Position numbers and translations under genes: made by a program. A stretch of 64,000 nt of DNA from a virus (lineage: Duplodnaviria; Caudoviricetes): the IMG/VR virus record IMGVR_UViG_3300037419_001546, positions 10,870 through 74,869 of that record. The stretch is one strand, 5' to 3'. Shown piece by piece: positions 14,768 through 44,187 of the stretch. Each line of letters starts with the position of its first letter. Position 1 is the stretch's first letter. Under the pieces are notes generated by a model. That model was not told the DNA's origin. It was given only the letters and a program-made list of their open reading frames with translations, and made no database searches.

Positions 14768-14775
14768 GGCGTCGG

Positions 14776-17695: not shown

Positions 17696-17738
17696 GCTGT
17701 CCCCTTGGGTCAGGGGGTGCACGTGTTCGGAGTGTGGC

Positions 17739-17882: not shown

Positions 17883-17887
17883 GCGAG

Positions 17888-18037: not shown

Positions 18038-18051
18038 ACTCTGAAGTTGTG

Positions 18052-18126: not shown

Positions 18127-18132
18127 GGCTTC

Positions 18133-27861: not shown

Positions 27862-28529
27862 AGGGCACCTCCGTTGATCCGGTCGTAGAGCCGCATCGCC
27901 CAGCGGGCGTCGCCCATGGCGGTGTGCCGCTCCTCGGCGGTGGGCGGCTCGACGCCGCATGCCCGTGAGATGTCGTCGGACTTCCACGGCAGCGCCAGGG
28001 CCTCGGGGACGAACTCCGGCACGATCACCCCGGCGTGCACCGAGGCTTTCAGGAAGCCGACTGCCAGGTTCTCGACGTCGATCAAGTGGTAGCGCCAGGA
28101 CGGGCAGAGTCCGTGGCGGCGCAGCATCGCGGCCAGCAGCTCGGTATCGAAATTCGGTACGGCGCCGACAATGTGCGCGTTCCGCGTCCACCTCTCGACC
28201 TCGGCCGCGACCATCGCTTCCGGGCCGATGTACGCCGTGATCGGGCCAGAACCCATCATGAACGGATCGGGTTCGGCGATCGACACGAAGTAGTCGTCGT
28301 CTTCGTACCGCTTGAACCGGTGGTGGCGTTCGTAGAAGCGGCCGATGTTGAGGCCGATCAGCTCCGCTGAGGAGAGGTCGACGTCGCTCACCTGGTAGGT
28401 GATCTCGCTCTGGTGGCGGAAGTTGCCGGCGTCGTCGAACTCGCGGCGGATCATCGCGATCTCCCATGGCCGCCGATCGGCGTGCAGGCCAGTGGTTTCC
28501 GTGTCGAGGAAGACGATCGGCGTGCTCAC
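27858..28529 (-). CDS. DnaQ-like DEDDh 3'-5' exonuclease
   Basis: FLDTETTG...GAVPNFD...HTAMGDA. Confidence 0.85.
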   Translation of the reverse strand: MSTPIVFLDTETTGLHADRRPWEIAMIRREFDDAGNFRHQSEITYQVSDVDLSSAELIGLNIGRFYERHHRFKRYEDDDYFVSIAEPDPFMMGSGPITAYIGPEAMVAAEVERWTRNAHIVGAVPNFDTELLAAMLRRHGLCPSWRYHLIDVENLAVGFLKASVHAGVIVPEFVPEALALPWKSDDISRACGVEPPTAEERHTAMGDARWAMRLYDRINGGAL

Positions 28530-29836
28530 TGGGCACCGGCCTCGGTGTCGAGCGTCTGCTGCTGTCCCTCGTCGGCGACGAGCTGGGTGAGCTCGGTGAG
28601 CACCTCGGCGGCCTCGCGCTCGTTGAGGTCGAGCGGGTCGGTGATCTGCTCGCGGCCGGGCAGGAACGAGCGCAGGAACAGAACCTTCTTCTCGTCGGTA
28701 TCGGCGCCGAGCTGGTCGAGCAGCTGCGCGGCCTGCGCCCACTGCGACCGCAGGATCGGCGCGTCACCGGCTTCGCGGCGCTGCAGCCGGGCGATGATGG
28801 CGTTCGCCTCCACGCTGGTCAGTTCCTTCGCCGAGGCGATCTCGCGGCCGGTGTCCGCTGACAACCACTTGCGCTTCGCCGCCGCGGTCTTGTGGCCGTG
28901 GCGCTCCAGTTCGCCCGAGAGTGCGCGCTGCTCGGCAGCCGTCGCGAATTCGGCGGGCGGGTCGGGCTCGTCGACCTGCGCAGTGTCCTGTTTTTCGCCC
29001 GGATCTGAGGCGGTCTCGGAATTCGATTCAGGGTTTTCCGGCGCCGGCTGACTTATACCGGCAGTAGAACCACCCTCGGCTGCGGGCGGCGGCGTCCACT
29101 GCCGCACATGGCTGGATACGCCACCGCCACCGCCGGCGACCGCGATGACCTGCGGCTGCACGCGCTCGGACTCCACGCGCACCGGCTCGGTCTCGTCGAT
29201 GCGGTCTTCCTGGTCCTCGGCGACCTCCAGGCCGAGCAGGATATGCGAGGCCAGACGCTTACAGACCGTGGTCGCCGCCTTGGCCCACAGCATTTCCTCG
29301 GGCTGCAAGATGTACTTCTCGTTGCCGATCATCTTCTCGTAGGCGCCGTTTGGGCCGGTGAGCTTCTTCGTCTTGTACTTGCCGGTCTCCGGGTCGATTG
29401 TCGGGACGAAACCGGCCCGCGTGGCGCGCTCGATCGTCCATTCGCTGGTCTCGGTGTCCCCGTCGGGCGCCCACCCCTGGAAAACGACGCGCTCGGGTCC
29501 GGCCTCGTGGGTGGTGAACCGGTAGCCCTTCTGGCGCAGCTTCGCGACCATCGTCTTGGCGTAGATGGATGGCATCCCGTGCACCGGGAATACGTTCTGC
29601 AGCGCCTGCAACGGATTCAGGCCGAGCTCGCCGCCGTGCATGATGGCGACGGCAGCGTCCTGCGGCTTGCCTTGGTAGATCTTCGGAACGATCGTGGTGC
29701 GGCAGACTCGTTCGGCGAATTTGTATGCGACGTCGAGCAGCTCGGCGTAGCGCATGAGGCTGTCGAACGGATCGTCAGCGGCGGCGACCGGGGCGAGTGC
29801 CCTGCCATCGTCGATGGTGGCAATGTCGGTGGTCAT
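28526..29836 (-). CDS. RecT-like ssDNA annealing protein
   Basis: VPKIYQGKPQD...GGELGLNPLQALQNVFPVHGMP; adjacent to recE. Confidence 0.7.
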   Translation of the reverse strand: MTTDIATIDDGRALAPVAAADDPFDSLMRYAELLDVAYKFAERVCRTTIVPKIYQGKPQDAAVAIMHGGELGLNPLQALQNVFPVHGMPSIYAKTMVAKLRQKGYRFTTHEAGPERVVFQGWAPDGDTETSEWTIERATRAGFVPTIDPETGKYKTKKLTGPNGAYEKMIGNEKYILQPEEMLWAKAATTVCKRLASHILLGLEVAEDQEDRIDETEPVRVESERVQPQVIAVAGGGGGVSSHVRQWTPPPAAEGGSTAGISQPAPENPESNSETASDPGEKQDTAQVDEPDPPAEFATAAEQRALSGELERHGHKTAAAKRKWLSADTGREIASAKELTSVEANAIIARLQRREAGDAPILRSQWAQAAQLLDQLGADTDEKKVLFLRSFLPGREQITDPLDLNEREAAEVLTELTQLVADEGQQQTLDTEAGAQ

Positions 29837-29843
29837 TGGTGGC

Positions 29844-30755
29844 TTAGTCCTCTCTGAAATAGCCCCAGCGGGGCAGGTCGATTTCGTGCGTGTAGTCGCT
29901 CCAGTCCGGCCAGATGCCGGACTCGAGGCATGCCGCGTAGATGTCGATCGCGCGGCGGTTCATCCGGGCACCGACGTCGACGGCCGAGGCGGGTAGGCGG
30001 ATCCGCCAGACCGGGTGCGGTGGCTTGTCGCAGACGGCGATGAATTCGAATTCGGTGTGCACGCCGAGGCAGGCGAAACCGTCCTGATACCAGGCCTGTT
30101 GCGCGTGATAGCCGAAGCTGTTGACCGACTTGCGGAATGCCTCGGGCGTCTCGTGCGGCGTGGTTTTCAGGTCGACAAGGATCGCGCTGTGCGGGCCGGT
30201 CCAGCACACCCAGTCGGCACGCACGCGCAGCATGACGCCGGTGACCGGATCGGGATACCAGCCCGACAGTTCGGGCTCGCCGGATGAGAGCAGCTCGGTC
30301 GCGTGCTCGTTCCGCCGCACCGCGTCGGCCATCGCCTTGGCCTGCCGATAGTGCTTGCTGCGCAACGGCACTCGGCCTGCGTCGCGATGCGCGTCGCGCG
30401 CTTTCTTCACCTCGTCCTTGCGGATCTCGTCGACGCCGAGGTCGACCAGCGGCGCGCCGGTGCCGAGCACGAGCGTGTGCACCGCGGTGCCGAGGTCGAA
30501 ATGATCGGCTGAGACGGGCTCAGGGTTGTCGCGCTCGTGCTTCCACATCCGCGGCGTCGTTTCGAGCAGCCGCCGCGCGCCCGAGGACGACAGCGACCGC
30601 GTATCGGCGTGGTAGATCGTGTCCGGTACGCCGGAGTACAGGCCAGGCTCGGCCGGTGCCAGCTGCTCGGCCTCGGCCGGCTGCTGCCCGCGGTGCTTCG
30701 GGCAGTCGCAGATCTCCTCGTCAAGGTCGGTGGTCTGGCAGATGGCATTAGTCAT
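29844..30755 (-). CDS. RecE-like PD-(D/E)xK exonuclease VIII (DUF3799-like)
   Basis: LSSSGARRLL...FDLGTAVH...RVRADW...VDLKTT...GYHAQQAWY. Confidence 0.85.
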   Translation of the reverse strand: MTNAICQTTDLDEEICDCPKHRGQQPAEAEQLAPAEPGLYSGVPDTIYHADTRSLSSSGARRLLETTPRMWKHERDNPEPVSADHFDLGTAVHTLVLGTGAPLVDLGVDEIRKDEVKKARDAHRDAGRVPLRSKHYRQAKAMADAVRRNEHATELLSSGEPELSGWYPDPVTGVMLRVRADWVCWTGPHSAILVDLKTTPHETPEAFRKSVNSFGYHAQQAWYQDGFACLGVHTEFEFIAVCDKPPHPVWRIRLPASAVDVGARMNRRAIDIYAACLESGIWPDWSDYTHEIDLPRWGYFRED

Positions 30756-31441
30756 GACGCCGCCCTCGATCGGTAAGGCTCGCGGCGCAATGTCGATGCC
30801 GGTGTAGGCGCATTCGGGTCGTCGAGCGCGTCTTCGTCCCACTGCATCGGCAGCGGCCAGCGCCGAGAACGGCCGTAGCTGCGGGCTCGGTCAGACGGTC
30901 CCGGCGTCATCTGCAGCCGGTTGAACAGAGCCACAACGGCGCGGTGCCGCGCTGCGGTGATCTGATCCCGGTGGTGAAGCATCGTGCCGAAATTGCCGTC
31001 GTCCATGCCGAGTTCAGCCGCGAGGTGCGCCATCGGCCACCCTGCTGCCACGAGCGCCCGCAACCGGCGCTGCGCACCGAGTGAGGGCACTGGCATATGG
31101 TCAGCCGCCACGCTGTACGGGTCGGCTGGGATCGCCACTGCCCGAATGCGATCGGCGACCGACCGCGAAATGAACGTGGCCGGCGGGCGTCCGGGCTTGC
31201 CGTAGAGCAGAGTCCCTAGCGAACTACGCGGTACCCCCGCCAGCTGCGGAATGCGGCGCAGCGAGACGCCAGCGCCCTGGAGCGCTCGCACGTGGGCGCG
31301 CACTGGTTCGGCATCCACGAACCCCGGTTCCCAGCGGCCGTAGAGGATTCCGCGGTTGCGCTCGTGGTAGTAGCACAACTTGCACAGCCCGCGGCGCAGC
31401 TGCTCGATGCGCGGGCAGCGCGAACACTGCGCGGCGCTCAT
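30752..31441 (-). CDS. HTH DNA-binding protein
   Basis: RGLCKLCY; VDAEPVRAHVRAL..AGVSLRRI HTH; RRLRALVAAGWP repeat. Confidence 0.7.
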   Translation of the reverse strand: MSAAQCSRCPRIEQLRRGLCKLCYYHERNRGILYGRWEPGFVDAEPVRAHVRALQGAGVSLRRIPQLAGVPRSSLGTLLYGKPGRPPATFISRSVADRIRAVAIPADPYSVAADHMPVPSLGAQRRLRALVAAGWPMAHLAAELGMDDGNFGTMLHHRDQITAARHRAVVALFNRLQMTPGPSDRARSYGRSRRWPLPMQWDEDALDDPNAPTPASTLRREPYRSRAAS

Positions 31442-31995
31442 GAGGCCATCTCCACCACGGGCGCCGGGACGGCGAGGATGCGCTGCTCGGTGTCCTTGTG
31501 GACACGCTTGCTGCGGTGCATGTGGATCAGGGTCGAGCGGTCAACCCCGGTCGCGGCCTGGATCTGTGGCCACGTCCACTGTGCGTCGCGCAGTTGCTTG
31601 ATCCGCTCCTTCGATGGGCCGGAATCGATCAGTCCGCGCACGCAGATCCAGCACCGCTGGTTCTCGTTGCGGGCGTTCGCGAGCTCGCCGCCGCACTGCG
31701 CGCACCGCGGCGCATCGTCGTTCTCCTTCGGTAGCGGCCGGCCGAGTTCCATGTGCAGCTGTTTCCATTCGGCGCGGTTGCTGAGGTCTCGTCCGGCGCG
31801 GATGCCATGCCGGTCGCCGGCGTCGAGTCCGGCGTTGCCGCACTCCTCGACCACAGGGCATCTGCCGCAAACGCGTTTCGCCTCGGCGATGACGGCAGTG
31901 GCCGACGGGTCCGGGAAGAAGAGATCCGGGTCGCTGTCCCGGCACGCCGCCCACATCTGCCACGCGGGCGCGTCGGGGTCGATACGGCCCGTCAC
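31438..31995 (-). CDS. whiB: WhiB-family transcription factor with a C-terminal extension
   Basis: AACRDSDPDLFFP...AKRVCGRCPVVEEC...HGIRAG. Confidence 0.9.
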   Translation of the reverse strand: MTGRIDPDAPAWQMWAACRDSDPDLFFPDPSATAVIAEAKRVCGRCPVVEECGNAGLDAGDRHGIRAGRDLSNRAEWKQLHMELGRPLPKENDDAPRCAQCGGELANARNENQRCWICVRGLIDSGPSKERIKQLRDAQWTWPQIQAATGVDRSTLIHMHRSKRVHKDTEQRILAVPAPVVEMAS

Positions 31996-32186
31996 AGCCC
32001 GAACTGCCCATCGATCCAGCGCTGGTAGGCGCGGTCGGTCTCGGCCCACTCATCGCGGTCGTCGGCTTGGTCCTCGTCGCCGGTGGCCATGGAGAACGCC
32101 TCGCGGAGGTCGGCGGCCGAGGCGATGATCGCGACGATCAGGGCGATGATGATGCCGGCCTCGAGAATGTGTCCGAAAGTGGTCAT
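31992..32186 (-). CDS. Small membrane protein
   Basis: One TM segment, GIIIALIVAIIAS. Confidence 0.55.
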   Translation of the reverse strand: MTTFGHILEAGIIIALIVAIIASAADLREAFSMATGDEDQADDRDEWAETDRAYQRWIDGQFGL

Positions 32187-32476
32187 CGGGTTGCTCCGTT
32201 CATCAGGCTGTCGCGCACGATGGCGCGGATACGGGACTGGCTTTCGGTGGTCATCCGGTCGAGCGGGACGCCGACGATGCGAGAGAGTTCGTCGGCTTCG
32301 GCCAGGCGCACGGGCCGGAATCCGCGTTCGGTCGCGAACACGGTGCTCTGGCTGAAGAGCTCGAACCCGGCCCGCCGCATGCGGTCGGCGATGTCGACCT
32401 GCCTCATGCCCAGCGCTTTCCGCGCGACCTTGAGATTCGCGATGAACCGCTTGTCGATGTCGGTGGTGGCGTGCAT
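32183..32476 (-). CDS. XRE-family HTH protein
   Basis: NLKVARKALGMRQVDIA...QSTVFATERG.R.VRLAEA. Confidence 0.85.
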   Translation of the reverse strand: MHATTDIDKRFIANLKVARKALGMRQVDIADRMRRAGFELFSQSTVFATERGFRPVRLAEADELSRIVGVPLDRMTTESQSRIRAIVRDSLMNGATR

Positions 32477-32868
32477 CAGGACGGCACCCCGCCTTCACCG
32501 GTCTGGCGCTCGGCGTCGACCGGGCCGGACTTCGCCGCCTCGGCGACGTAACCGAGCTGGGTGATGGTGTTGGCGACGCGTGCGCTGGCGTTGGGCTCGC
32601 CTGCCCACTTCAGTTCGGCGGCGGCGTTCTTCAGCTCGACGATGGCCATGGAGGCGATCTGCGCGAAGTCGACGGCGTCACCGCGGGCTACGAGGTTTGC
32701 GAGCAGCTGGCCGAACAGCCGCTGCGCGACCACCGGTGTCACGATGACGCGGGCGTCGTCGCTGAGCTGCAGGACGTATTTCTCCATGCCCGGGTTCCAG
32801 CGAACGTCCAGGTCCCGGACGACGATGGGCGAGTACACGGTGGCGTAGGACTCGGCGTCGATGCTCAT
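32476..32868 (-). CDS. Hypothetical protein
   Basis: Coupled ORF. Confidence 0.55.
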   Translation of the reverse strand: MSIDAESYATVYSPIVVRDLDVRWNPGMEKYVLQLSDDARVIVTPVVAQRLFGQLLANLVARGDAVDFAQIASMAIVELKNAAAELKWAGEPNASARVANTITQLGYVAEAAKSGPVDAERQTGEGGVPS

Positions 32869-33083
32869 GCGGTCACCGCCAGGGTGGCGGTACCGGAGTG
32901 CTGCGCGAGCCACTGATCCGTCGGCGTCCAGTCGCTCCACGGGTCGATCACGTTGGTCGGCGGCGCGTCGAGCACGACGGTCATCGGGATCGTCGGGTGC
33001 TCGTCGCGCATGATCAGCGCGGCGACGGTGACGCGTTCGTGGCCGGCCTGGTGGTGGCGGCCATGGTTCGAATGTCTTCCCAT
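32865..33083 (-). CDS. Hypothetical protein
   Basis: MGRHS...VTVAALI motif; GGAG RBS. Confidence 0.55.
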   Translation of the reverse strand: MGRHSNHGRHHQAGHERVTVAALIMRDEHPTIPMTVVLDAPPTNVIDPWSDWTPTDQWLAQHSGTATLAVTA

Positions 33084-33159
33084 TGGGTATGCTCCCGTTC
33101 GGTTCTGGTGAATCGAGATGGGACCCGGCGAGATGCGGCTCTCGCCGGGTCTCGGTGTG

Positions 33160-33498
33160 TCAGGACGTGGCACGACTCCCGGCGCGAGGTTCGTCTGCAC
33201 CCGCGCCGGGAATCGTTCGGGGGGAATCCGATTGGCGTGTGCGCTGTCGAGCGCGGTCGATCGGAATTGGGATGGTGGGCGGCAGTGCGCCCGCGGGAAT
33301 GTGAACCGCTTCGATGTGGACCAGGGCGTCGGTGTTGTCGACCTTCGCGACCGATTCGGCTGCTGCGCGGGCGGCGGCTGCGGCGGCCCGGGCGTCTCGC
33401 GCGCAGTTCCGGGCGTCGGTACGGGACTGGCTGACGGTGAACACCGCGACGGCGAGGGCGGCGGCCGCGACCGTGAGGGCGATGACGGAGACGATCAT
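33160..33498 (-). CDS. Hypothetical protein with an N-terminal TM segment
   Basis: MIVSVIALTVAAAALAVAVF. Confidence 0.5.
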   Translation of the reverse strand: MIVSVIALTVAAAALAVAVFTVSQSRTDARNCARDARAAAAAARAAAESVAKVDNTDALVHIEAVHIPAGALPPTIPIPIDRARQRTRQSDSPRTIPGAGADEPRAGSRATS

Positions 33499-33764
33499 GC
33501 GATCGTCCCGGTCTTCTCCAGTTCCAGCTCCAGCAGCGCGGCCTCGTGGCGTTCGGCGATATCCAGGCGCAGAGCCAGCTCGTGCTGGTCGGTGCGCGCC
33601 TTCGCCAGCGACCGCAGCGCGGAAAGGTAGCGCGCCTTCCAATGCTGGTTGATCTGCTGGAACATGCCGCTGTAGTCGGCCTCTTCCTGCAGGCGATGGA
33701 CGCGGCGGTTCGCGTCGAGCAGCTGCTCGGAGATCTCGGCCACCGACTGGCCGGGGGCGGTCAT
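33495..33764 (-). CDS. Hypothetical coiled-coil protein
   Basis: Coupled ORF. Confidence 0.55.
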   Translation of the reverse strand: MTAPGQSVAEISEQLLDANRRVHRLQEEADYSGMFQQINQHWKARYLSALRSLAKARTDQHELALRLDIAERHEAALLELELEKTGTIA

Positions 33765-34444
33765 GACGCAACCGCTTCCGGCTCGCCGAACACGGACACG
33801 TACGGGTGGGCGAGGATCGCCAAATGCTCAGCGGCGGAATCGTTCTGGCCGATCAGGTCGGTGAGCATGAGCGCCCGCGTGATGCTGCGCACCGCGTGCT
33901 CCGCTGCGGCGATAGCCTCCCAGTGGAGGTCCAAGTCGCGGTAGTTGATCGCGGCCACGGCGGCGTCACGGGCTGCATCCCATCTGTCCTCCGCCTTCGC
34001 CGTCGAGGCGGCTCGCGTCAGGTCATGCAGCGCGCGTAGCGCCGACCCGCAGCGCGAACTGAAGTCGGAATCGACGTCGGCCATCTGCTGCAGCTGCTCG
34101 GGGGTGGCGGCTGCGACGGTGCGCACGACGGCCACGATCCGGCGCCACTGCGGGCCGAAGGTGTCCTCGAGGTCGCCGTCGGTGATCTCCGTGGTGGCGA
34201 GATAGCCGCGCACGTCATCGGCAGTGCGCCCACGGTCGTCGTTCCATTCCTCGGCGCGGTCGCGGGAACGATGCACCGCACGGACGAGACCGAAGTCGCC
34301 GGGCACGGGCGTGCAGTGCTTGAGCGCACCGGACAGGCAGACGCCGGACCGGGTCTCCATCTCGCCCTGGATCCAGCCGTGCTCGTCGATGTAGGCGGCG
34401 GCCGCGCGGCAGGCTGCGGTCAGAGTCTGTGCGGGGGCGGTCAC
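33761..34444 (-). CDS. DUF6197-like protein
   Basis: GWIQG...CLSGAL...WNDDRGRTADDV. Confidence 0.6.
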   Translation of the reverse strand: MTAPAQTLTAACRAAAAYIDEHGWIQGEMETRSGVCLSGALKHCTPVPGDFGLVRAVHRSRDRAEEWNDDRGRTADDVRGYLATTEITDGDLEDTFGPQWRRIVAVVRTVAAATPEQLQQMADVDSDFSSRCGSALRALHDLTRAASTAKAEDRWDAARDAAVAAINYRDLDLHWEAIAAAEHAVRSITRALMLTDLIGQNDSAAEHLAILAHPYVSVFGEPEAVAS

Positions 34445-34641
34445 GAGGCTTCCGCCTGCTCGTCGCGGGCCTTGCGGTAGGCCTCGACATCCTCCGGGCG
34501 CAGGACGTAGGCGCCCGTTCTGCCTGGAAGTTTCTCGGCTGGTAGCTGGTGTGTGCGGATGAGGTCAACGACTGCCCGGCGCCCGATGTTGAGCAGTTCG
34601 GCAACCTCCACAACACCGAGCAGTTTCACGGTTTTGTGCAT
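34441..34641 (-). CDS. Cro/excisionase-like HTH protein
   Basis: LLGVVEVAELLNIGRRAVVDLI..HQLPAEKLPGRTGAYVL; divergent from the repressor. Confidence 0.8.
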   Translation of the reverse strand: MHKTVKLLGVVEVAELLNIGRRAVVDLIRTHQLPAEKLPGRTGAYVLRPEDVEAYRKARDEQAEAS

Positions 34642-34742
34642 AAGCCAAGTTCTACACCTAACTTGGCGTATGCACAAGATTTGCCGGGTGTGTCGGAGTT
34701 TTGCATACGTTGCCAAACTTGGTTGAGTCTGCCAAACTTGGC
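34634..34742. promoter_or_regulatory. Lysis/lysogeny switch operator region
   Basis: 17-bp inverted repeat TTGTGCATAAGCCAAGT/ACTTGGCGTATGCACAA; two copies of TGCCAAACTTGG (34711, 34730). Confidence 0.65.
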
Positions 34743-34745
34743 GGC

Positions 34746-35183
34746 ATGACGAGAGCGCACGCGGTGGGAAGGATCCCGGAGATCACGCTTCACCACCGGC
34801 TTCGAATTGCACGAGAGACCGCCGGCCTCGATCAGGGGCAGCTCGCGGAGATGGTGGGGGTCAGTCGCAACTCGATCGGTAACGCCGAATCGGGCAAGCA
34901 CGCGCCCCGGAAAATCCTGATCAACGCATGGGCACTCGCTACGGGCGTGCCTGCGTACTGGCTTGAAACAGGAGAAACCCCCCACCCGAATGGACCGGGT
35001 GAGGGGTCGTTGCTCCCCCATCTGGACTCGAACCAGAAACCTGCCGGTTTACAGCCTCAGCGCTCTGACCAGCACGTTTTCGAGAACGTTTTCCCACTTC
35101 CGGGAACACCCTCGCGTAACCGGCCCGCGGCCGCTTCTCCGGCCCGTGTGAGCTCCGCCACGTCGGAGGTGGCGGCAGCATGA
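34746..35183 (+). CDS. Immunity repressor (XRE), att-containing read-through form ending VAAA
   Basis: IPEITLHHRLRIARETAGLDQGQLA...SRNSIGNAESG HTH; LLPHLDSNQKPAG is the antisense of a tRNA 3' end. Confidence 0.9.
   Translation: MTRAHAVGRIPEITLHHRLRIARETAGLDQGQLAEMVGVSRNSIGNAESGKHAPRKILINAWALATGVPAYWLETGETPHPNGPGEGSLLPHLDSNQKPAGLQPQRSDQHVFENVFPLPGTPSRNRPAAASPARVSSATSEVAAA
35012..35056 (-). other. att common core (tRNA-Asn-like 3' half)
   Basis: Minus strand reads CTGTAAACCGGCAGGTTTCTGGTTCGAGTCCAGATGGGGGAGC: anticodon arm, T arm and acceptor 3' strand; no 5' half or intact D arm. Confidence 0.85.
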
Positions 35184-35365
35184 GGACGAGCACACCCGCA
35201 CTTGCCATTGCGCGGCAAGGCGATATCTGGCCCGGTCGCTATAGCGACATCGATGCGGCGTGGCGGACTGCGGACTGGTGCACAAAGCATTACGCCGGCG
35301 CGCCTTTCCGTGTGATCGATATCCGGACCGGCGAGCTGACTCAGCGCAAGGCGGTCGCGGCATGA
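35180..35365 (+). CDS. Small hypothetical protein
   Basis: GGAGG RBS inside the repressor tail; ATGA coupling. Confidence 0.55.
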   Translation: MRTSTPALAIARQGDIWPGRYSDIDAAWRTADWCTKHYAGAPFRVIDIRTGELTQRKAVAA

Positions 35366-35649
35366 GCGCCCCCGCCGTGACCGTCCTCGACTTCGCAACC
35401 GAGGCCGCGGCGATCGACGATGCGCGCGAAGCGGCCCACGCTGGGCTGCGGGCGGCGAACGTGCGCGGTGTCACCGGCGACGATCTCGATGCTTTCAGCG
35501 GCGCAATGGAATCGGTGCAGCAGCGGTGCGAGATCCTGCGCCGCGCGTTCTACCCGCGCCGAGCTCAGCTGTGGATCGGGAACGGCACGGCGATGACGCT
35601 CTCGGCGACCGGCCGGTCGCGCCGGATCGTCTGGCAGCGCCCGCGATGA
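35362..35649 (+). CDS. Small hypothetical protein
   Basis: ATGA coupling. Confidence 0.55.
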   Translation: MSAPAVTVLDFATEAAAIDDAREAAHAGLRAANVRGVTGDDLDAFSGAMESVQQRCEILRRAFYPRRAQLWIGNGTAMTLSATGRSRRIVWQRPR

Positions 35650-35912
35650 CCACCGTGCTCACGCCCGGCGGTCCGATCCCGCAGCGGACGCTGTTCGCGA
35701 TGGCGCGCCTCAGCGCGGTCGAGGCGCACAACGAACTCGACGATGCGGCCGCGTGGCTCGACAGCGAGACCATCGGCGGCCGACTGCCGGCGGTCGCTGC
35801 GCTCGCGCGTCTCAACGCGATCCAGAAGCTCGCCCGTGCGGCTGACCTCATCAATGAGGCGGCCGCCGATCTCGACAGCGCGACCGAGTACTACCGGCGA
35901 ACGCTCCGGTAG
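35646..35912 (+). CDS. Small helical hypothetical protein
   Basis: ATGA coupling. Confidence 0.55.
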   Translation: MTTVLTPGGPIPQRTLFAMARLSAVEAHNELDDAAAWLDSETIGGRLPAVAALARLNAIQKLARAADLINEAAADLDSATEYYRRTLR

Positions 35913-36098
35913 CCGCGGTAATAACGATCTTGCTCCGATTGGACAACGGTCCAGGGATCCCCTAATTGGAGTAGTACAACAATTAGGGGATGGATCGAAC
36001 CGAACGTTAAACCAATTCAGACAATTCACACCAATCGCAAAGAAATTCAACGACGAATTTCGGGCGCGGTTGGTTTTCATATATACGGCGGATAAAAA

Positions 36099-37007
36099 AT
36101 GAGCAACATTGTCGAAATTCGTTACTCACGCTCAAAAGGTCAACTAAAACCGATCACTATGACCGGTAACTGTATGTTGTCCGTTCCGCGCCAGTGGACC
36201 GGGCCCATCGAAAAGTTCGAAGAGTTCCTACGAGCCATCGGCCGACCCAAATCTACTAGACGACTACGTATCTACCATCTCCGGCGGTTCGCCGTAGACC
36301 ATCGCCGCACCCATCCATGGGAAGTGACCGAGGACAACCTCGTCACATGGATGGCAAGCCGCGACTGGGCGCCCGAAACCCGCCGATCCTATCGAGCGAG
36401 TCTGCGAGGGTTCTACTCCTGGGCCCTCGCCAAGGGACACATCACCGCCGACCCGTCCTACAACCTCCCCGCCCCCACACCGCCGCCGGCCAAGCCGCGG
36501 CCCGCGCCCGACGAAGTCGTCGACTGCGGTCTGCGGTCCGTCGACCTGCGGGTACGGGTCGCGGTCATGATCTTCGCGTTTACGGGTATGCGTAGACATG
36601 AGGCGGCGAAGATGCACACCGACGATCTGATCTCACGCTCGGACGGCTGGTACGTCCGAGTCGTCGGAAAGGGCGGCCGGGTGCGGCTGATCCCGGTCGA
36701 TGATCTGTTCGCTTCGGCGATCCGGTCGATGCCGCCGGGGTTCATCTTTCCGGGCAAGATCGACGGGCACATCAGCGCGAACCACCTCGGCAAGATCGTC
36801 TCCCGGGACCTGCCCGGCGACTGGACGGCGCACACGCTGCGCCACCGGTTCGCGAGCCTGGCGTACTCCATCGAGCGCGACATTCGTGCCGTGCAGGAGC
36901 TGCTGGGACACGCCAAGGTAACCACCACTCAGATCTACACTTTCGTTCCGGAAGAAAGCTTGCGCCGCGCCGCGGCGGGCGCGAGACGCGGCCTCACCGC
37001 CGCGTAA
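36099..37007 (+). CDS. int: Tyrosine integrase (short form; start may be 36159)
   Basis: Catalytic R (GMRRHE), K (VGKGG), HxxR (HTLRHR), LLGH and TQIY; ends GLTAA. Confidence 0.95.
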   Translation: MSNIVEIRYSRSKGQLKPITMTGNCMLSVPRQWTGPIEKFEEFLRAIGRPKSTRRLRIYHLRRFAVDHRRTHPWEVTEDNLVTWMASRDWAPETRRSYRASLRGFYSWALAKGHITADPSYNLPAPTPPPAKPRPAPDEVVDCGLRSVDLRVRVAVMIFAFTGMRRHEAAKMHTDDLISRSDGWYVRVVGKGGRVRLIPVDDLFASAIRSMPPGFIFPGKIDGHISANHLGKIVSRDLPGDWTAHTLRHRFASLAYSIERDIRAVQELLGHAKVTTTQIYTFVPEESLRRAAAGARRGLTAA

Positions 37008-37020
37008 CAGAATAAAGAAT

Positions 37021-37084
37021 CCGCCCCGGGCTACTCCTAATAGCCCGGGGCGGTTCTGTTTGAGGTGTACGGACACCCTCAAAC
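37021..37084. terminator. Tandem hairpins after int (probably bidirectional terminator)
   Basis: CCGCCCCGGGCTA/TAGCCCGGGGCGG followed by TTCTGTTT, then GTTTGAGGTGT/ACACCCTCAAAC. Confidence 0.75.
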
Positions 37085-37268
37085 AGGGCACAGTGTAAAC
37101 AGCAATGTCAAGGTTGCGGGGTAATAGTCGCAGGTCTTTACGTTGTCCTAACATGACAGCATGATTGGCCCGGCGGTCCTCCGGTACGGTTGACGGCGCA
37201 CCTTCCCAACGTGCACATGCAACGGCCCGCACACCTTCACCGGTATGCGGGCCGTCTCGCGTGTCGGG

Positions 37269-37526
37269 TCAGCTCTCGCGCGGATCCTTCCAAGGGCCGT
37301 CCGGGCCGGTAGCGCCTGGCGGCCGCCACGGCTTCGAACCGGCTGCCCGGCGGGCCATCGTCGCCGCCTCGCGCCCGGTCCGGCCGGACTGCTCGAGGAC
37401 AGCGAGATCGACACCGCCGCTCTTGCTGGCGACGAGGGTGATCAGCTCGTCGGTGGCATCCTGCAGTTCCTGCTGCGCCCGGGCCACGCGCTCGTATGCG
37501 GCTGCGATCGCGTCATCGGTGCTCAT
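37269..37526 (-). CDS. Small hypothetical protein coupled to the XRE regulator
   Basis: CAT at 37524-37526 and TCA at 37269 place it on the minus strand; MSTDDAIAAAYERV... Confidence 0.55.
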   Translation of the reverse strand: MSTDDAIAAAYERVARAQQELQDATDELITLVASKSGGVDLAVLEQSGRTGREAATMARRAAGSKPWRPPGATGPDGPWKDPRES

Positions 37527-38776
37527 GCGCGCATGATATCGCGGGCGTTCAGGCGAGCGTCGAGCGCGCGCACCGGCTTCGACCCCGCCCACGGCGAGAG
37601 CTGGCGCCGCGCGTCGAGGATCGCGCGTGCCAGCCGCGGCGACCGGTTACGGTCGGTCAGCTCCGCCGCCTCACCGACCATCGCGGCCGCTTCCTCGATC
37701 TCGCCCAGCTGAATGAGCGAGCGCTGCAGCTCCAGCATCGACAGCGCCCGATCACGCGGCCGTGTCGGATCCAGCAGCGCGACCGCCCGGCGCGAGGCCT
37801 CGGCCGCTGGCCGCGCGTCGCCGAGCATGGTGAGGCATCCGCCCCAGAACGCGTCGAGCATGGCGGGCCCGGTGAAGTACGCGCGCGATTCAGCCGGCGT
37901 GGCCGGACCGAGATCGGCCGCCGCCTTGGATGCCGATTCGAGCGCCTTCGTGCTCGCCTCGCCCTGCGCCGAGAGCGCGGCCGCCTCGGCGAGCCGCAGA
38001 TCGACGTACGCGCGCAGATGACGGTCTCCGGACTGCGCGACCCACGATTGCGCCGCGACCGCGTGATCCATCGCGATGCGCGGTGAACGGTCCTGCCAGA
38101 TCGCGAGCTGCGACAGATGGCACAGCATATACGCGGACAGGTCGGAATCTTCTGCCTCGTGGGCGATCTCGCGCGCCTGCTGATACATCGTCGCCGCGCG
38201 ACCGTAGTCGCCGCGGTCCCAGGCGAGGCACCCTGCGAAGCCGACCCACTCGCCGTGCAGCGAAAGCAGTTCGGGCCGTAGCGATTCCGGGCATTCACGC
38301 AGCATCGTCTCGGTGAGCGCCAGCTGCGCGTCGGCCATGCCTTGCGCTGCCGGTGAGCCCATCGAATCGTCGAGGGTCATCGCCGCGTGCAGCGTGGTGC
38401 GCACATGCGACAGCGCCCACTCGTCGGGCCGGCCGGATCCAGCGGCCAGCGCCGCGGCCCGTGCCGGGTCGGCCATCGCGGCGGCGCCGACAGCTGCAGC
38501 GCTGGCGGTGGTGGCGATGAATGTGCGTCGGTCCACGTCGTTCTCCTCGTTTCCGAGCAACTTCTGCTCGAAGACGGCTACGACACTGTCCGGCGCGGAG
38601 GCCAGCAACGTATCGAGGTCGGCCTGATTGGCCCATCCGATCGGGTTGCCGGCCTCCCACCGCTGGACGGTGCGCAAGGTGGTTCCGAGCTTGGCTGCAA
38701 ATTTGGACTGACTCAGCCGGTACGCGTCGCGTAGCGCGCGTGATTCCGTGCCGGTCCAAGAAACGACGGTAGTCAT
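37523..38776 (-). CDS. XRE-family regulator with a large helical C-terminal domain
   Basis: CAT at 38774-38776 and TCA at 37523 (minus strand); RALRDAYRLSQSKFAAKLGTTLRTVQRWEAG HTH; VDRRTF linker typical of actinomycete XRE regulators. Confidence 0.85.
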   Translation of the reverse strand: MTTVVSWTGTESRALRDAYRLSQSKFAAKLGTTLRTVQRWEAGNPIGWANQADLDTLLASAPDSVVAVFEQKLLGNEENDVDRRTFIATTASAAAVGAAAMADPARAAALAAGSGRPDEWALSHVRTTLHAAMTLDDSMGSPAAQGMADAQLALTETMLRECPESLRPELLSLHGEWVGFAGCLAWDRGDYGRAATMYQQAREIAHEAEDSDLSAYMLCHLSQLAIWQDRSPRIAMDHAVAAQSWVAQSGDRHLRAYVDLRLAEAAALSAQGEASTKALESASKAAADLGPATPAESRAYFTGPAMLDAFWGGCLTMLGDARPAAEASRRAVALLDPTRPRDRALSMLELQRSLIQLGEIEEAAAMVGEAAELTDRNRSPRLARAILDARRQLSPWAGSKPVRALDARLNARDIMRA

Positions 38777-38820
38777 GCGGCACCCCTCGCAATAGTGGTC
38801 CACTTCACCATAACGCAGGC

Positions 38821-38853
38821 ATGTCGTATCTACGTCGTATTCACGTCGTAGGG
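38821..38853. promoter_or_regulatory. Three 11-bp direct repeats (putative operator)
   Basis: ATGTCGTATCT ACGTCGTATTC ACGTCGTAGGG between the divergent XRE gene and small ORFs. Confidence 0.55.
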
Positions 38854-38943
38854 GTTGGGCCGAAAGTCATGTGTACGCCCCGCCGCCGGGCGCCGCAAGC
38901 CTCGACGGCGGGTGCGCATCACACTGCACGGGAAGGCAGCCAC

Positions 38944-39267
38944 ATGCACACCACCAGCGCGAACCGTACCGCAATCGCGGTGCTGCGCATCGAAATCCGG
39001 GGTGGAAACGACGAGCGCGACATGCGCGAGATCGGCACGAAACTCGGCTACGACGTCGACGAGCAGCTCGTCGCGATCGACCCGCACTCCGAGGCCCCGC
39101 TGAAAACCGTCATGAAGGCGTTGCGCGCCACCGGCGCGACCGCGGTCATCGTGCCCGATATCGACCACATCGACGGCATCGACCACCAGATCCACGAACG
39201 CGCGCTCATCGTCACCGTGGAAGGTGAGCGCGTCCTCGAGCGCGCCGCCACCGGGGCGGCAGCATGA
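38944..39267 (+). CDS. Small protein resembling a resolvase N-terminal fold
   Basis: AIAVLRIE...LGYDV...ATAVIVPDIDHI pattern; GGAAGG RBS. Confidence 0.6.
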   Translation: MHTTSANRTAIAVLRIEIRGGNDERDMREIGTKLGYDVDEQLVAIDPHSEAPLKTVMKALRATGATAVIVPDIDHIDGIDHQIHERALIVTVEGERVLERAATGAAA

Positions 39268-39599
39268 GTGGCGCCGAGATTGTGGTGACCGCCGCCATCG
39301 CTGTCGTCTGTCTCGGCATCGTCGCTGTGTTCGTCCTCGGCGACATCCGGGCCAGCCGCGACGACCTGCCGCTCCAGTCGGGGTCGCACGCCCTGGCGCC
39401 GATCGCCCCAGCATCACACCACCGCGCGCGGCAGCTGCCGCCGGAATGGCGTTGCGCCCCACTGCGTTCACCCATGACGATCCGGCGGGCTCAGTTCGAG
39501 ATGCAGGACCACAAGCACTGCTCCCTCGACGCGTGCCCGCGCAAGAATCAGGCGCACGCCCTACTGGTGTTCTCCGGCAAGATCATCCCGCAGCGATGA
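39264..39599 (+). CDS. Membrane-anchored protein with a C-terminal H/C motif
   Basis: N-terminal TM; MQDHKHCSLDACPRK...LVFSGKIIP. Confidence 0.6.
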   Translation: MSGAEIVVTAAIAVVCLGIVAVFVLGDIRASRDDLPLQSGSHALAPIAPASHHRARQLPPEWRCAPLRSPMTIRRAQFEMQDHKHCSLDACPRKNQAHALLVFSGKIIPQR

Positions 39600-39847
39600 G
39601 CGAGCCGTCGTACATCGGCTACCTGCACACCGACGACGGTGTGTGCATCGTCGGGCCGGACGGATTCCCCGACACCGCCGCCCACATGCCAGAGCTGGCC
39701 GACGACGAAACCCCCGCCCTGGGTGTGCCGACGATCGACGTCTCCCCGGAATCGGTGATCGACACCGAAACCGGGCCGCCCAATAAAGCTCCCGCCTGTA
39801 CGGTCCGGTCACGCTCGCAGTGCCGGGGCGTGGCCGAAGGCGGGTAG
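39596..39847 (+). CDS. Small hypothetical protein
   Basis: ATGA coupling. Confidence 0.45.
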   Translation: MSEPSYIGYLHTDDGVCIVGPDGFPDTAAHMPELADDETPALGVPTIDVSPESVIDTETGPPNKAPACTVRSRSQCRGVAEGG

Positions 39848-39956
39848 AGGGATCGTCGGAGCGCTTCGAGCGGCCGGCGATCCCGCTGAGGATTCTCACG
39901 CACGACACGTCACTGCCCCCTGCAATGTCGAGCGTGAGAACCACCCTCAACACAGA

Positions 39957-39999
39957 AAGCCGCCCCACTCGAATCGGTGAGATTCGGGTGGGGCGGCTT
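39957..39999. terminator. Long hairpin terminator
   Basis: AAGCCGCCCCACTCGAATC/GATTCGGGTGGGGCGGCTT, 19 bp with one G-U pair. Confidence 0.75.
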
Positions 40000-40037
40000 C
40001 GTGTTAACGCATCACCCGCTGCGGCGATACTGGGTGC

Positions 40038-40484
40038 GTGAAGAGACTGCTCGCGGTCGGCGCCCTGGCGATGTGCACCGCAGTGGCGGCCGGCTGTTCC
40101 TCCAGCTCGAGCGCGCCTGCCACTACACCTACCGCCGCCGCAACGAGCGACGAGGATATGGCCCGCGAAATTGCGTTGAGCGTGTACGGCAAGGACTTCG
40201 GCGACGTTGCGCACCCCGATGACTTCGTCTCGGCGGTAGTCGACACCGCCCGCAACGGCTGCAACATCTTGCGTAACACCGCGGACATGGACCTTCTGCC
40301 GCTGACACCGACCGCGGACAGCAAGAACATGGTGTCGTCGCTGCTGCAGAGACTGTCCAGTGATAGTCACCTCACCGAGCAGCAGGAACGCAACGATCTA
40401 TGGGTGATCGCGAAACATCGGTGCCCGCAATACTCAGCAGCCCTCGGCGCCCACTACGACGCTATTCCAGTCGCAGCTCGTTGA
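40038..40484 (+). CDS. Lipoprotein
   Basis: MKR plus hydrophobic stretch and lipobox AAGC, then a Ser/Thr linker. Confidence 0.75.
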   Translation: MKRLLAVGALAMCTAVAAGCSSSSSAPATTPTAAATSDEDMAREIALSVYGKDFGDVAHPDDFVSAVVDTARNGCNILRNTADMDLLPLTPTADSKNMVSSLLQRLSSDSHLTEQQERNDLWVIAKHRCPQYSAALGAHYDAIPVAAR

Positions 40485-41229
40485 TGGCCTCGGCCATCCG
40501 ATGGCAGTACATGCCCTCGATGTAGGTGCGGATGTGATCCTGCCCGGACAGGTAGCCGACTACCTGCCGCGCGGCCTCGTCGTAGATCCGCCACGTCTCG
40601 GCCGGATGGCGCCACCAGTCCCACGTGATCGGCTGGAACCGCCGACGGCGCAGCCGGTCGACGAGATCCTGTGACCAGCCGCCGATCTCGGCGAAGCTGA
40701 ACGCACTCATGCCGTCAGCGATGCCGCGCAGTGGTGAGCCGGCCGCGCACGAGGTGATCACATCGTTCGGGTTGGCGTACTCGAGGTGGATGTGCCCAGC
40801 AGGGAAGTCACCGTGCGGGCCGTTGATCCCGTAGCCGCGGGCGCCGGAGTCGACCGAGTCCCCTTCGCGCCGCGCCGGATTGGCCAGGCACGCCGTGAAC
40901 GCCACCTGGCACTCAGGGAACAGGCCGGCGGCCTTGGCCTCCATGAATGCGTCGACCACGAGAGCGCCGAGACTGTACCCGATGACACCGACAAGGTTCG
41001 GTGTCGCACGGATCATCGCCGACAGCGCGGTCAGCCCGATCTCGATCGAGGTGGCCTCACTCGCACCGGCCGGGCCCGCGCCGACCGGGCCGACCGTCGC
41101 CGGGTACGGGCAGTCGCCGAGATACCGGAATTTCTCCGGGTCGAGCTCGCGGACGACGTTGCGGAGCATAGCGTTCGGCGCGCCCAGCTGCTCGCCCGTG
41201 CCGCGGACAGTGATGATGTCTATGGTCAC
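40462..41229 (-). CDS. lysB: Lysin B (cutinase-like esterase)
   Basis: VRGTGE...GYSLGA (GxSxG)...LANPARR; GTGA coupling. Confidence 0.85.
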   Translation of the reverse strand: MTIDIITVRGTGEQLGAPNAMLRNVVRELDPEKFRYLGDCPYPATVGPVGAGPAGASEATSIEIGLTALSAMIRATPNLVGVIGYSLGALVVDAFMEAKAAGLFPECQVAFTACLANPARREGDSVDSGARGYGINGPHGDFPAGHIHLEYANPNDVITSCAAGSPLRGIADGMSAFSFAEIGGWSQDLVDRLRRRRFQPITWDWWRHPAETWRIYDEAARQVVGYLSGQDHIRTYIEGMYCHRMAEAINELRLE

Positions 41230-42494
41230 GGGAGCGCCGCCACCAGCTCGGTAGCCATACGCTGATGCCCCAGCCAGCTGGGGTGAATCGTGTCTGTGGT
41301 GTAGTCGGGCCACAGCGCGGTGCTGCTGGTTCCGCGCATCGCGCCCGCGAAATCCACCACGCCGTTGCAGAATCCGGGCTGCGAGCCGATCCAGTCGTTG
41401 TAGGCCAGGCGCACGCTGTCGCCGGTCGACGTCCGGGATATGACGGTGCCCAGATACACGGATCCGGTGAAGCCGTAGGTCGTTTGCAGCCTGCTGACCA
41501 GAGTCCGAACCGACGCCTGTAGCCCCGCCAAGGTCGCGGACGCGCCGAAGATGTCGTTGCTGCCGCCGCAGATCAGCACCTCATCGAGAGTGAATGTGCC
41601 GAGGGCCAGCCGGTCCCAGATGTGCGCGACGCTGGCGTTCGAGAGAGCCGTCGCATAGTCCGAGAGTTTCCAGCCAGCCAACGACATGTTCACGATCAAC
41701 CGGTTCGTCGCGGCGGCCCACAGGTAGACGTTGCCCTTCCACAATGGAGTCGGCACGATGCTCGCCGAAGTGGTTCCCTTCGCGCCGGCGATCGGCTCGA
41801 AGATGCTGTCGCCGATCACCAGGCACACCTTGCGGCGGCTGGTCGTCTGGTACTCGATGATCACGTCGAACGGTACGGAGGTGACAGTGCCGCCCGAACC
41901 GGCGACAGTGGGGTCCGTGGCTGAGGTCGAGTTGGACCAGGTCCACGCCTTCCCGGCGCCGGTCTGCACTGCGGTCGACGATGCGAATGTCCACCCGAAG
42001 GCCACCAGAAACTCGGTGTTCGCGGTGAACAGTCCCGGGCCACTGGTCACCAACGGAGCGTTGTAGTAGGACCCGTCTCCGGGGATCGTCTGATCCGTGG
42101 AGACGATCGTCGTCGCCGTATTGCCCGAGAAGCTGCCCGTCTCCGCGCCGGTGTTGTCGCTGCTCGACGGCGGGCTGTGCAGGCCGACAACCAACTTCTT
42201 GAGTGTGGCAGCGGTTTTCGCCGTCTCGGCCGTATCGCGGTTCCGGATCATCAGACGCCACTGCGTCACATCCACCGGCAGCTTCACTACGAACCGCGTG
42301 CTGCCAGCCGTCCCCGCCGCCAACGATGAGGTGACCGTGCCGCCGAGGCCGCCGTTGCTGTGCCGCAATGTACGGGTGACAGGCGGCCCGCCGTACAGGT
42401 CTTCGATTCCAGCCTCGATGCGGTTGAGCTGGACGGCCGTGATCGGCGTTGCCGTCGACGGCTCGCTCTCCCAGATTGTGCGGGACCACGACAT
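41226..42494 (-). CDS. Tail-associated protein with a C-terminal SGNH/GDSL hydrolase
   Basis: IGDSI, GGSND and DTIHP blocks; N-terminal W.SEPST.TPITA.QLNRIEAGI tail-fibre anchor. Confidence 0.8.
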   Translation of the reverse strand: MSWSRTIWESEPSTATPITAVQLNRIEAGIEDLYGGPPVTRTLRHSNGGLGGTVTSSLAAGTAGSTRFVVKLPVDVTQWRLMIRNRDTAETAKTAATLKKLVVGLHSPPSSSDNTGAETGSFSGNTATTIVSTDQTIPGDGSYYNAPLVTSGPGLFTANTEFLVAFGWTFASSTAVQTGAGKAWTWSNSTSATDPTVAGSGGTVTSVPFDVIIEYQTTSRRKVCLVIGDSIFEPIAGAKGTTSASIVPTPLWKGNVYLWAAATNRLIVNMSLAGWKLSDYATALSNASVAHIWDRLALGTFTLDEVLICGGSNDIFGASATLAGLQASVRTLVSRLQTTYGFTGSVYLGTVISRTSTGDSVRLAYNDWIGSQPGFCNGVVDFAGAMRGTSSTALWPDYTTDTIHPSWLGHQRMATELVAALP

Positions 42495-43289
42495 TTACGG
42501 CGCTCCTGGATACAGGTCAGGCGACGGATACAGCCCTGACGATGGGTAAGGGACGAGCACACCGACACGGGCGGGCGGGATCATCGCCGCGGTTGCGGTC
42601 ATCGGCGGGACTATGACGGTCGCGCCGGCCCGTACAGTCGGGACGAGCATTGCGGCCGTTGCGGCGGCTGTCGGCGAGGTGAGCGTTGCACCGGCCGACA
42701 CGGCAGGCGCGATGAATTCGGCGCTACCTTGCATGGCGGGCGCGGCAACGGTCGCGCCGGCGTGCACCGTCGGCGGCAGCATGTCCGCGAATGCGGACAT
42801 GGCCGGTACCACGATGAGAGCGCCAGCTGTCACCGCTGCCGGTGGCAACATCTCCGCAGTCGCGGTCATAGGGGGCGGTGTCACGATGCCGATATCGACT
42901 TGCGTTGTCGGCGCATACATTTCGGCGGTGGCCGTCATCGGTGGCACGAGCACCGTCACGGGCACGGTCACTGTCGGCGCCAGCATGGCAGCAGAGGCCG
43001 TCATCGGCGGGGCCAGGACCACAGCGCCACCGATCACCGTGGGGGGCAGCATGTCGGCCGTGGCCGCCATGCGCGGCACTGCGATCGTGCGGCCCGCGTG
43101 CAGCACCGGGGTCGGCATCGCCGCGGCGGCCCGCATGACCGGCGCGAAAATGAGCGCCGGCACCGTGCCGTCGAACAACAGCGTGTCGCCGAGGTAGACG
43201 CGCACCACCTGATGCACGACCCCCTCGGCGTCGACCCAGCGCAGGAATACCGGGGCGGCGCCGCGGCGATACAGTGCCGATTCCGGCAT
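42495..43289 (-). CDS. Minor tail protein with ~20-aa repeats
   Basis: About 9-10 copies of PPMTATAxMxxP; C-terminal YPSSGLYPSPDLYPG. Confidence 0.7.
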   Translation of the reverse strand: MPESALYRRGAAPVFLRWVDAEGVVHQVVRVYLGDTLLFDGTVPALIFAPVMRAAAAMPTPVLHAGRTIAVPRMAATADMLPPTVIGGAVVLAPPMTASAAMLAPTVTVPVTVLVPPMTATAEMYAPTTQVDIGIVTPPPMTATAEMLPPAAVTAGALIVVPAMSAFADMLPPTVHAGATVAAPAMQGSAEFIAPAVSAGATLTSPTAAATAAMLVPTVRAGATVIVPPMTATAAMIPPARVGVLVPYPSSGLYPSPDLYPGAP

Positions 43290-43726
43290 CAGGCTGCCGT
43301 GATCGTGGCCACGCCCGAGGCATCCCACTGCACGGTGAACGTCGACGCCGTGACCGGGATGTCGTTGTCGTAGAGGATGTAGCCGACGAGCGGACGAGTG
43401 CTGTCGGACGCGGGGGTCGCGTCGTACAGCACGGCGACGCGCGCGGTGAAGCTCGCCGATGTCCACTGCGCGTCCGGGCAGTCGATCACGAGCTGATTCG
43501 TCGCAGGGTTGTAGCTGATCGACAGCGGAGAGACCACCAGTCCGCCGGCGGTGTAGCCGGTGCCGGAGATTTCATTCGTCACCGAGCTCTTGTATTGGTG
43601 TGCGTCCTGGTCGGGCACGTAGGCCGACGAGCAGAGCATCACCTTGAACGTGTCGGAGTTGAGGTTCACCTCCTTGTTCGCCAGCGACAGCAGGAACTTG
43701 CCGTAGAACTTGGCTGTGTGCGCCAT
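43289..43726 (-). CDS. Minor tail protein
   Basis: NLNSDTFKVMLCSSAY.PDQDAH...EISGTGYTAGG motif. Confidence 0.7.
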   Translation of the reverse strand: MAHTAKFYGKFLLSLANKEVNLNSDTFKVMLCSSAYVPDQDAHQYKSSVTNEISGTGYTAGGLVVSPLSISYNPATNQLVIDCPDAQWTSASFTARVAVLYDATPASDSTRPLVGYILYDNDIPVTASTFTVQWDASGVATITAA

Positions 43727-43763
43727 GGTTGCTGCTCCTTATGTGTGAAAGGTGTTGTGCCCG

Positions 43764-44171: not shown

Positions 44172-44187
44172 TGCGTCGCCCTTTCTG

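Follow-up and report, generated by a model that had tools for sequence, protein, structure and literature searches.

In a virus record of 74,869 bp (IMGVR_UViG_3300037419_001546), bases 10870–74869 form the 64,000-nucleotide stretch analysed here, to which we refer throughout as the window. Somewhat right of its middle lies a phage attachment site (attP) whose common core is embedded in the open reading frame (ORF) of an immunity repressor gene (rep), with the gene of a tyrosine integrase (int) following downstream. The record has a G+C content of ~67%, bears nearly all of its genes on the minus strand, and holds two sets of virion genes, one running leftward from a terminase gene at 11562–13346 and the other leftward from a terminase gene at 62213–63694. 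The features on which the account of the attachment site depends are the following, in window coordinates:

34444–34641, minus strand: cro/excisionase-like HTH_17 gene of 66 amino acids (aa), divergent from the repressor (Pfam HTH_17, E 1.4e-9)
34746–35183, plus strand: immunity repressor in its viral (unintegrated) form, 145 aa, ending in ...TSEVAAA (Pfam HTH_3, E 5e-10)
34976–35008, minus strand: G+C-rich hairpin with a T-run, inside the repressor ORF, from a scan for terminator-like sites (putative function)
35011–35049: attP common core, 39 bp, exact antisense copy of the tRNA-Asn(GTT) 3′ part
35049–35051, plus strand: repressor codon 102, TTA (Leu) in the phage versus TAA from the antisense tRNA-Asn anticodon loop, by comparison with tRNA-Asn loci
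36099–37007, plus strand: tyrosine integrase, 302 aa, ending in ...RRGLTAA (Pfam Phage_integrase, PF00589, E 8.8e-17; Phrog_1, E 2.7e-38)

The 145-aa repressor matches phrog_2328 (transcriptional repressor) with an E value of 3.6e-34 over residues 1–119, and it shares 54% identity with the proteins annotated as immunity repressors in Gordonia phages Twister6, Wizard and RogerDodger over residues 1–120, a span that includes the part encoded by the core. The repressor and integrase genes are co-oriented, with int downstream of rep, and the cro-like gene is divergent from them; the latter opens the leftward early operon and matches phrog_66 (excisionase and transcriptional regulator), and its position suggests the role of a Cro. 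An earlier reading of this DNA, made from its letters alone (the original prediction), had recognized an attachment core inside the repressor gene, an integrase after it and, in the two together, the layout of phages of the BPs/Brujita type. All of this is borne out by the present analysis, as is its choice of a minus-strand tRNA-Asn gene as the target, which the identity of the core with tRNA-Asn(GTT) confirms.

Within tRNA-Asn, the core covers the 3′ strand of the anticodon stem and all that follows up to the acceptor end; ARAGORN called no tRNA there, as expected for a partial tRNA. An exact 33-mer taken from the core occurs at 23 loci in a collection of species-representative genomes. These include intact tRNA-Asn genes in several metagenome-assembled genomes and, in ~14 Nocardia genomes, remnants of the type left at the left end of a prophage (attL), which stand between a host terminator and foreign DNA. 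By blastn, the core and these attL-type Nocardia copies are 100% identical over 35010/35011–35048/35049. In the genus Nocardia, the tRNA-Asn gene seems to be a hot spot for integration, with foreign DNA standing beside the core in ~14 species. In Nocardia sp. NPDC059180, an attL-type core (3148–3187 of locus L013) lies only 4.1 kb from an intact tRNA-Asn gene (7332–7406), a pairing that points to a small island or remnant there.

What lies to either side of the core is a separate question. The original prediction had noted phage DNA on both flanks and two different virion gene sets beyond them, and had taken the core for the boundary between two different prophages, A and B, inserted in tandem at one chromosomal tRNA-Asn gene and meeting in a hybrid junction, P(A)-core-P′(B). 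The two flanks and the two virion sets are indeed there. Phage DNA on both sides of the core is nevertheless what one expects of a free phage genome, because the window is not a chromosome, and the boundary between A and B falls elsewhere:

1–34443, minus strand: phage A virion genes (terminase 11562–13346, portal, capsid, tape measure, reaching past the window's left edge) and early genes, placed by Logan contigs
41338–41549: stretch identical in A and B, in an SGNH/lysin-B-like gene; contigs of depth 190.7 and 28.8 both end at 41337
41550–64000, minus strand: phage B fragment with lysis, tail, head and terminase genes, 22.5 kb, ~26x

Among public sequencing runs, only one, a soil metagenome marked as the likely source of the record, contains the region in full, and all statements on depth and contiguity refer to contig-level means of Logan contigs (k = 31) from this run, placed on 26000–45999. 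A rhizosphere metagenome run (X2), whose pieces are all short and of low depth (share 0.09), was left out of the evidence. In the soil run, a 22,173-bp contig of depth 190.7 matches 26000–41337 with 0 differences, straight through the core; it reaches left to ~19165 and carries early genes, the cro-like gene, the small ORFs that follow the repressor, int and genes beyond. Because this single contig spans the core at a single depth, both arms of the core belong to one molecule. Binned depth drops from ~200 to ~30 between 41.3 and 42.0 kb, a step that stands 6.3 kb to the right of the core, and the virion genes on that side lie on a 16,237-bp contig of depth 26.3 that starts at 42258. A further contig, of 13.6 kb and depth 28.8, touches 41281–41337 with 4 differences and then continues leftward into other sequence. 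It is the rarer phage B's own leftward continuation, and it accounts for all of the depth of B. Rightward of the stretch shared by A and B, the first difference between them is at 41550, and the shared identity amounts to at least 212 bp.

Where, then, does the abundant phage go at 41337? A 394-bp Logan contig of depth 191.2, placed on 41559–41952, has 51 differences from the window. When the record's left end is aligned to 41423–42533 for a comparison letter by letter, every listed difference turns out to be the letter found at that left end (for example 41589 A>G, 41595 T>C and 41631–41634 GCTG>AGAA). Since letters of the left end thus stand on a 191x contig, the abundant phage runs from 41337 into the first bases of the record. 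Record bases 1–127 recur as an exact copy at window 41423–41549, and when window 41226–41422 is joined to record bases 1–1072, an unbroken ORF of 422 aa with GDSL/SGNH-like motifs results, equal in length to its 92%-identical counterpart in the window. Phage A is accordingly a circle of 52,291 bp, from record base 1 to window position 41422, present at ~190x. Its virion genes lie on a 27,364-bp Logan contig whose end is extrapolated to record base ~836, a position homologous to 42258; the A virion contig and the B contig break at the same shared words (~836 and 42258).

The record is chimeric and consists of phage A plus a 22.5-kb fragment of phage B. An exact repeat of 127 bases fits a path through a de Bruijn graph at k = 127, the largest k in common use with metaSPAdes. 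Such a path would have started on the A branch just after the shared stretch, gone once round A, re-entered the shared stretch and left it on the B branch. No terminal repeats were found in the 74,869-bp record. A comparison of the whole record with itself, by 12-mers and by blastn, likewise revealed no further copies of the core, in a record that is not a chromosome and has both of its ends in phage genes. A single 75-kb phage with two virion modules was also considered and is ruled out by the depth step and by the closing of A on itself.

These observations bear directly on the tandem arrangement. It would account for a core flanked by phage DNA and for a record with two different virion sets, and the two units are syntenic and have an 86%-identical gene in common. 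On a chromosome, however, two neighbouring prophages should be equally deep, while the depths seen are ~191 and ~26, with the step at 41.3–42.0 kb and not at the core. Moreover, the integrase side has A's depth and stands on A's contig, B continues leftward into other sequence, the left end of A is the 191x variant of the shared gene, and the exact 127-base repeat is what a path through an assembly graph would leave behind. Evidence of misassembly, which the original prediction had named beforehand as refuting a double lysogen, is what the depth step, the separate continuation of B and the closing of A on the record's left end provide. We regard two different prophages in tandem at this site as extremely improbable, and the hybrid junction is abandoned: both arms, int and the genes up to 41337 are on the one contig of depth 190.7, and the right-hand virion set has a depth of 26.3.

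Alternatively, the record could faithfully report a molecule that does exist at low frequency, a recombinant of A and B with arms exchanged within their shared stretch. At 212 bp or more, the identity is long enough for homologous recombination, and actinobacteriophages are strongly mosaic (PMC5559632). Nonetheless, the depth of B to the right (26.3) is matched by that of its own continuation to the left (28.8), which leaves no measurable share for an A::B molecule, and an overlap of exactly 127 bases points to an artefact of the graph. This makes a genuine recombinant very unlikely.

A third possibility concerns the state of phage A itself, which might be integrated as identical tandem copies (a polylysogen) or exist as replication concatemers beside the chromosome, so that the junction would be one of A with A and not that of a free circle. 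The two are hard to tell apart on this point: an A–A junction has the same sequence as attP and contigs alone cannot distinguish them, and a depth of 190 in soil suggests active replication. Against it, the k = 31 contig runs unbroken through the 39-bp core, and therefore any attL form, or its right-hand equivalent attR, must be far rarer than the attP form; nor is there a loose end at the core among the 12 loose ends listed of more than 1,600. We consider this arrangement unlikely as well, if slightly less remote than a recombinant.

Taken together, we hold, at a probability of roughly 0.86, that the attP is the genuine site of a single temperate, siphovirus-like phage A, captured in its unintegrated state and endowed with integration-dependent immunity of the BPs type, and that the second virion set belongs to phage B and was joined to it by an assembly error. 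Several points weigh against this view. The soil run is probably the record's own sample, so that its contigs offer an independent assembly and an independent measurement of depth on the same material. Contigs drop rare variants, and a small minority of integrated or recombinant molecules is possible. For the 27,364-bp virion contig, the sole ties to the 191x pieces are the original assembly and the break point at ~836. With regard to immunity, the -AAA and -TAA ends are putative degradation tags in this host, judged from their sequence, and int is separated from the core by ~1 kb and three ORFs, as opposed to the adjacent genes of the canonical layout.

An integrated relative provides a view of the same system from the host side. 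In Nocardia vaccinii NBRC 15922 (NZ_BDCC01000019.1, ~203,664–256,286), two direct copies of the core lie 52,588 bp apart on one contig. The left copy is followed by a homologue (L020) of the middle one of the three small ORFs of phage A, termed o2, and by an integrase that is 66% identical to that of phage A and ends in GLTAA. The right copy lies within an intact minus-strand tRNA-Asn gene, with a repressor homologue before it. This prophage repressor stops at the anticodon TAA after 108 aa; when the attR and attL arms are rejoined in silico, it is extended to 151 aa and ends in ...GTAA. When the circle of phage A is opened at the core, its tblastx matches to the N. vaccinii prophage are collinear over the whole length: int first, then the tail, tape-measure, head, portal and terminase genes (the last with up to 74% identity), and finally the early genes and the repressor. 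For the phage B fragment, the matches to this prophage are no more than scattered and weak. One prophage of the same size (52.6 versus 52.3 kb) thus pairs this integrase side with A-type virion genes, a further observation against a tandem of A and B. The two phages share the tRNA-Asn core, an o2 homologue and collinear virion and early genes, but they differ in that the N. vaccinii phage is integrated, with attL and attR, that its repressor is only 46% identical to that of A, and that many of the early genes differ. The original prediction had expected a truncated repressor preceding an intact minus-strand tRNA-Asn gene at the far end of a tandem pair; just such a repressor is present in N. 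vaccinii, where it bounds one phage and not two.

In an IMG/VR provirus, G002 (98% complete), int and rep likewise stand at opposite ends, and the integrase and repressor are 55% and 64% identical, respectively, to those of phage A. It was examined as a second link between this type of integrase and A-type virion genes and was rejected in that role, because most of its virion genes show no relation to those of A and it targets a different tRNA; what it supports is no more than this general architecture.

The truncated repressor in N. vaccinii leads to the switch encoded at the edge of the core. In the frame of the repressor, the core reads ...AAA CCT GCC GGT and is followed in the phage by TTA CAG, while the host tRNA reads GGT TAA. 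Position 35050 is the sole difference between phage and tRNA-Asn at codon 102. With the host TAA in place of TTA, the repressor would shorten from 145 to 101 aa and lose the tail ...SEVAAA. A crossover anywhere in the 39-bp core would join the 5′ part of the repressor gene to this TAA, and the product would therefore be 101 aa long in every case.

The codons just 5′ of the core have a second reading. Those encoding ..PHPNGPGEG.. double, on the opposite strand, as the G+C-rich hairpin with its T-run at 34976–35008, which would stand directly downstream of the 3′ end of tRNA-Asn after integration and is probably a terminator supplied by the phage for the rebuilt tRNA. Comparable hairpins occupy the same place in the N. 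vaccinii prophage (G001:C19, ~256,215–256,250) and in provirus G002 (G002:C1, ~57,600–57,640), and the double use of repressor codons seems to hold in these two relatives, one of them at a different tRNA.

Integration as we picture it would proceed as follows. In a host that is probably Nocardia or closely related to it, Int would recombine the 39-bp core with a tRNA-Asn gene. The exchange would rebuild the tRNA from the phage's copy of its 3′ part, set the phage hairpin behind it as a terminator, and replace TTA with the antisense TAA, giving rise to an untagged and presumably stable repressor of 101 aa. By analogy with mycobacteriophage BPs, integration would be the step that stabilizes the repressor, the tagged form being subject to proteolysis and the short form conferring immunity. 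As to the presumed tags, the repressor ends in EVAAA and Int in GLTAA, and the corresponding ends in the N. vaccinii relative are GTAA and GLTAA, an ssrA-like pattern at the level of sequence only. It is tempting to generalize from these features to a lineage of Nocardia-associated phages. In this lineage, the host would supply the stop codon of the active repressor from the antisense anticodon loop (TTAAC read as ..T TAA C), the phage would keep an A-to-T change at 35050 that permits read-through to the tag, and the opposite strand would encode the terminator of the tRNA, such that the switch would be locked to tRNA-Asn by a double coding constraint. We give this generalization somewhat better than even odds.

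How does this system compare with those already described? The defining features of integration-dependent immunity have been laid out for other actinobacteriophages (PMC3694055; PMC4557955; PMC5559632), and phage A, as judged from its sequence, displays those that a sequence can reveal. In BPs, the viral repressor of 136 aa and Int carry C-terminal tags for proteolysis, and the prophage form of 103 aa is stable and confers immunity (PMC4557955; PMC3694055). BPs (Cluster G; gene 32, int; gene 33, rep; gene 34, cro) resembles phage A in having attP in the rep ORF, co-oriented rep and int, a divergent cro, a viral repressor with an alanine-rich C-terminal end, and an Int that ends in -AA. The shortening of the repressor is likewise comparable, from 136 to 103 aa in BPs and from 145 to 101 aa in phage A. 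Phage A differs from BPs in its tRNA-Asn target, in the three extra ORFs and ~1 kb that separate the core from int, and in its probable Nocardia host, and the two have no match at the sequence level past the helix-turn-helix family.

The closest repressors in the phage collection are those of the Gordonia phages of the genus Wizardvirus named above (Twister6, Wizard and RogerDodger), which also share the order of cro-like gene, rep, int and lysis genes. Integration-dependent immunity has been predicted for these three phages, with attB-2 in tRNA-Arg (PMC5559632). Unlike in phage A, rep and int are adjacent in these phages; their Int is only 38% identical to that of A and their virion genes show no relationship. 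It is the small Gordonia phages of Cluster CW (SallySpecial, whose Int is the 52% match, Emperor, GMA5 and GRU3) that have the closest integrases of the collection, at 44–52% identity. These have integration-dependent immunity, and GMA5 has one extra ORF between int and rep (PMC5559632). They differ from phage A in their genomes of 16–18 kb, their attB in tRNA-Lys and their repressors. At the nucleotide level, megablast of 34000–38000 against the phage collection gave no match. In the literature searched, we found no direct link of Nocardia prophages to integration-dependent immunity.

Several further elements surround the switch:

34634–34741: intergenic control region with operator-like repeats, from a repeat search (putative function)
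35180–35912, plus strand: small ORFs of 61, 95 and 88 aa that separate the repressor gene from int, predicted as genes on the Logan contig
35957–35991: near-perfect palindrome, ATCCCCTAATTG...CAATTAGGGGAT, in an A+T-richer spacer upstream of int, from a repeat search
37021–37053: bidirectional terminator, a hairpin of 13–15 pairs with terminator-like calls on both strands, where int meets the leftward late/lysis genes convergent to it

In the control region, an inverted repeat (34634–34651 and 34660–34677) has 18-nt arms that are 94% complementary, and the 12-mer TGCCAAACTTGG occurs as two exact direct copies, at 34711 and 34730, in the spacer between the repressor and cro-like genes. A scan of 34300–37300 for sigma-70-type promoters, which is ill-suited to actinobacterial promoters, found none. 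The three small ORFs at 35180–35912 have no match in Pfam or PHROG; the middle one has its 57%-identical homologue in the corresponding position of the N. vaccinii prophage. Beyond int and convergent to it, in a moron-like region that precedes the lysis genes, lies a gene (37523–38803, minus strand) for a 426-aa protein with an N-terminal HTH_3 domain, a Tat-signal-like stretch and TPR-like repeats, which matches phrog_10886 (transcriptional regulator). It is followed by two small plus-strand ORFs (38821–39599), and the genes of this region (37523–39599) may be expressed from the prophage.

Elsewhere in phage A, the region between the early and packaging genes (14475–18138) encodes, according to the Logan gene calls, a Tad2-like protein (PF11195) and an HNH endonuclease beside the small and large terminase genes. 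A 532-aa ORF at 16124–17722 adjoins a tRNA-Leu-like call at 17958–18030, and the Logan contigs of phage A break from 17330 to 19165, probably at tRNA-like words. At 4266–4358 (plus strand), ARAGORN reports a 93-nt tRNA-Arg(TCG) inside a minus-strand Big_2 major-tail-like gene (4189–5100), which is probably a false call. As for phage B, its terminase is 60% identical to that of Gordonia phage Lucky10. Its gene 1 (63660–63980) begins 20 nt from the end of the record and overlaps the start of the large terminase gene (63694) by 35 nt; in Lucky10, gene 1 starts from base 45 and overlaps the large terminase gene by the same 35 nt. The right end of the record is probably the physical genome end of phage B. 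Finally, the soil run contains another Logan contig, of 12,015 bp and depth 200, with only a weak 52-nt match to the window at 27882–27933; something else, a host or another phage, occurs in this run at the same very high depth as phage A.

The present findings are mainly a correction, in that readings of this record built on a tandem of two prophages are to be dropped. They also suggest a practical check for viral contigs, in which an exact internal copy, of length k, of the contig's own start, coupled with a step in depth, signals a closed circle with a foreign tail. What remains after the correction is a clean and complete genome of a 52.3-kb temperate phage, present in soil in its unintegrated form and at high depth. 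A tandem double lysogen, if true, would have left one of the two prophages with only a degradable repressor. Read as the site of a single phage, the locus brings a probable Nocardia host and tRNA-Asn as a target into the range of integration-dependent immunity, and a natural integrated relative displays the truncated repressor that the switch predicts.

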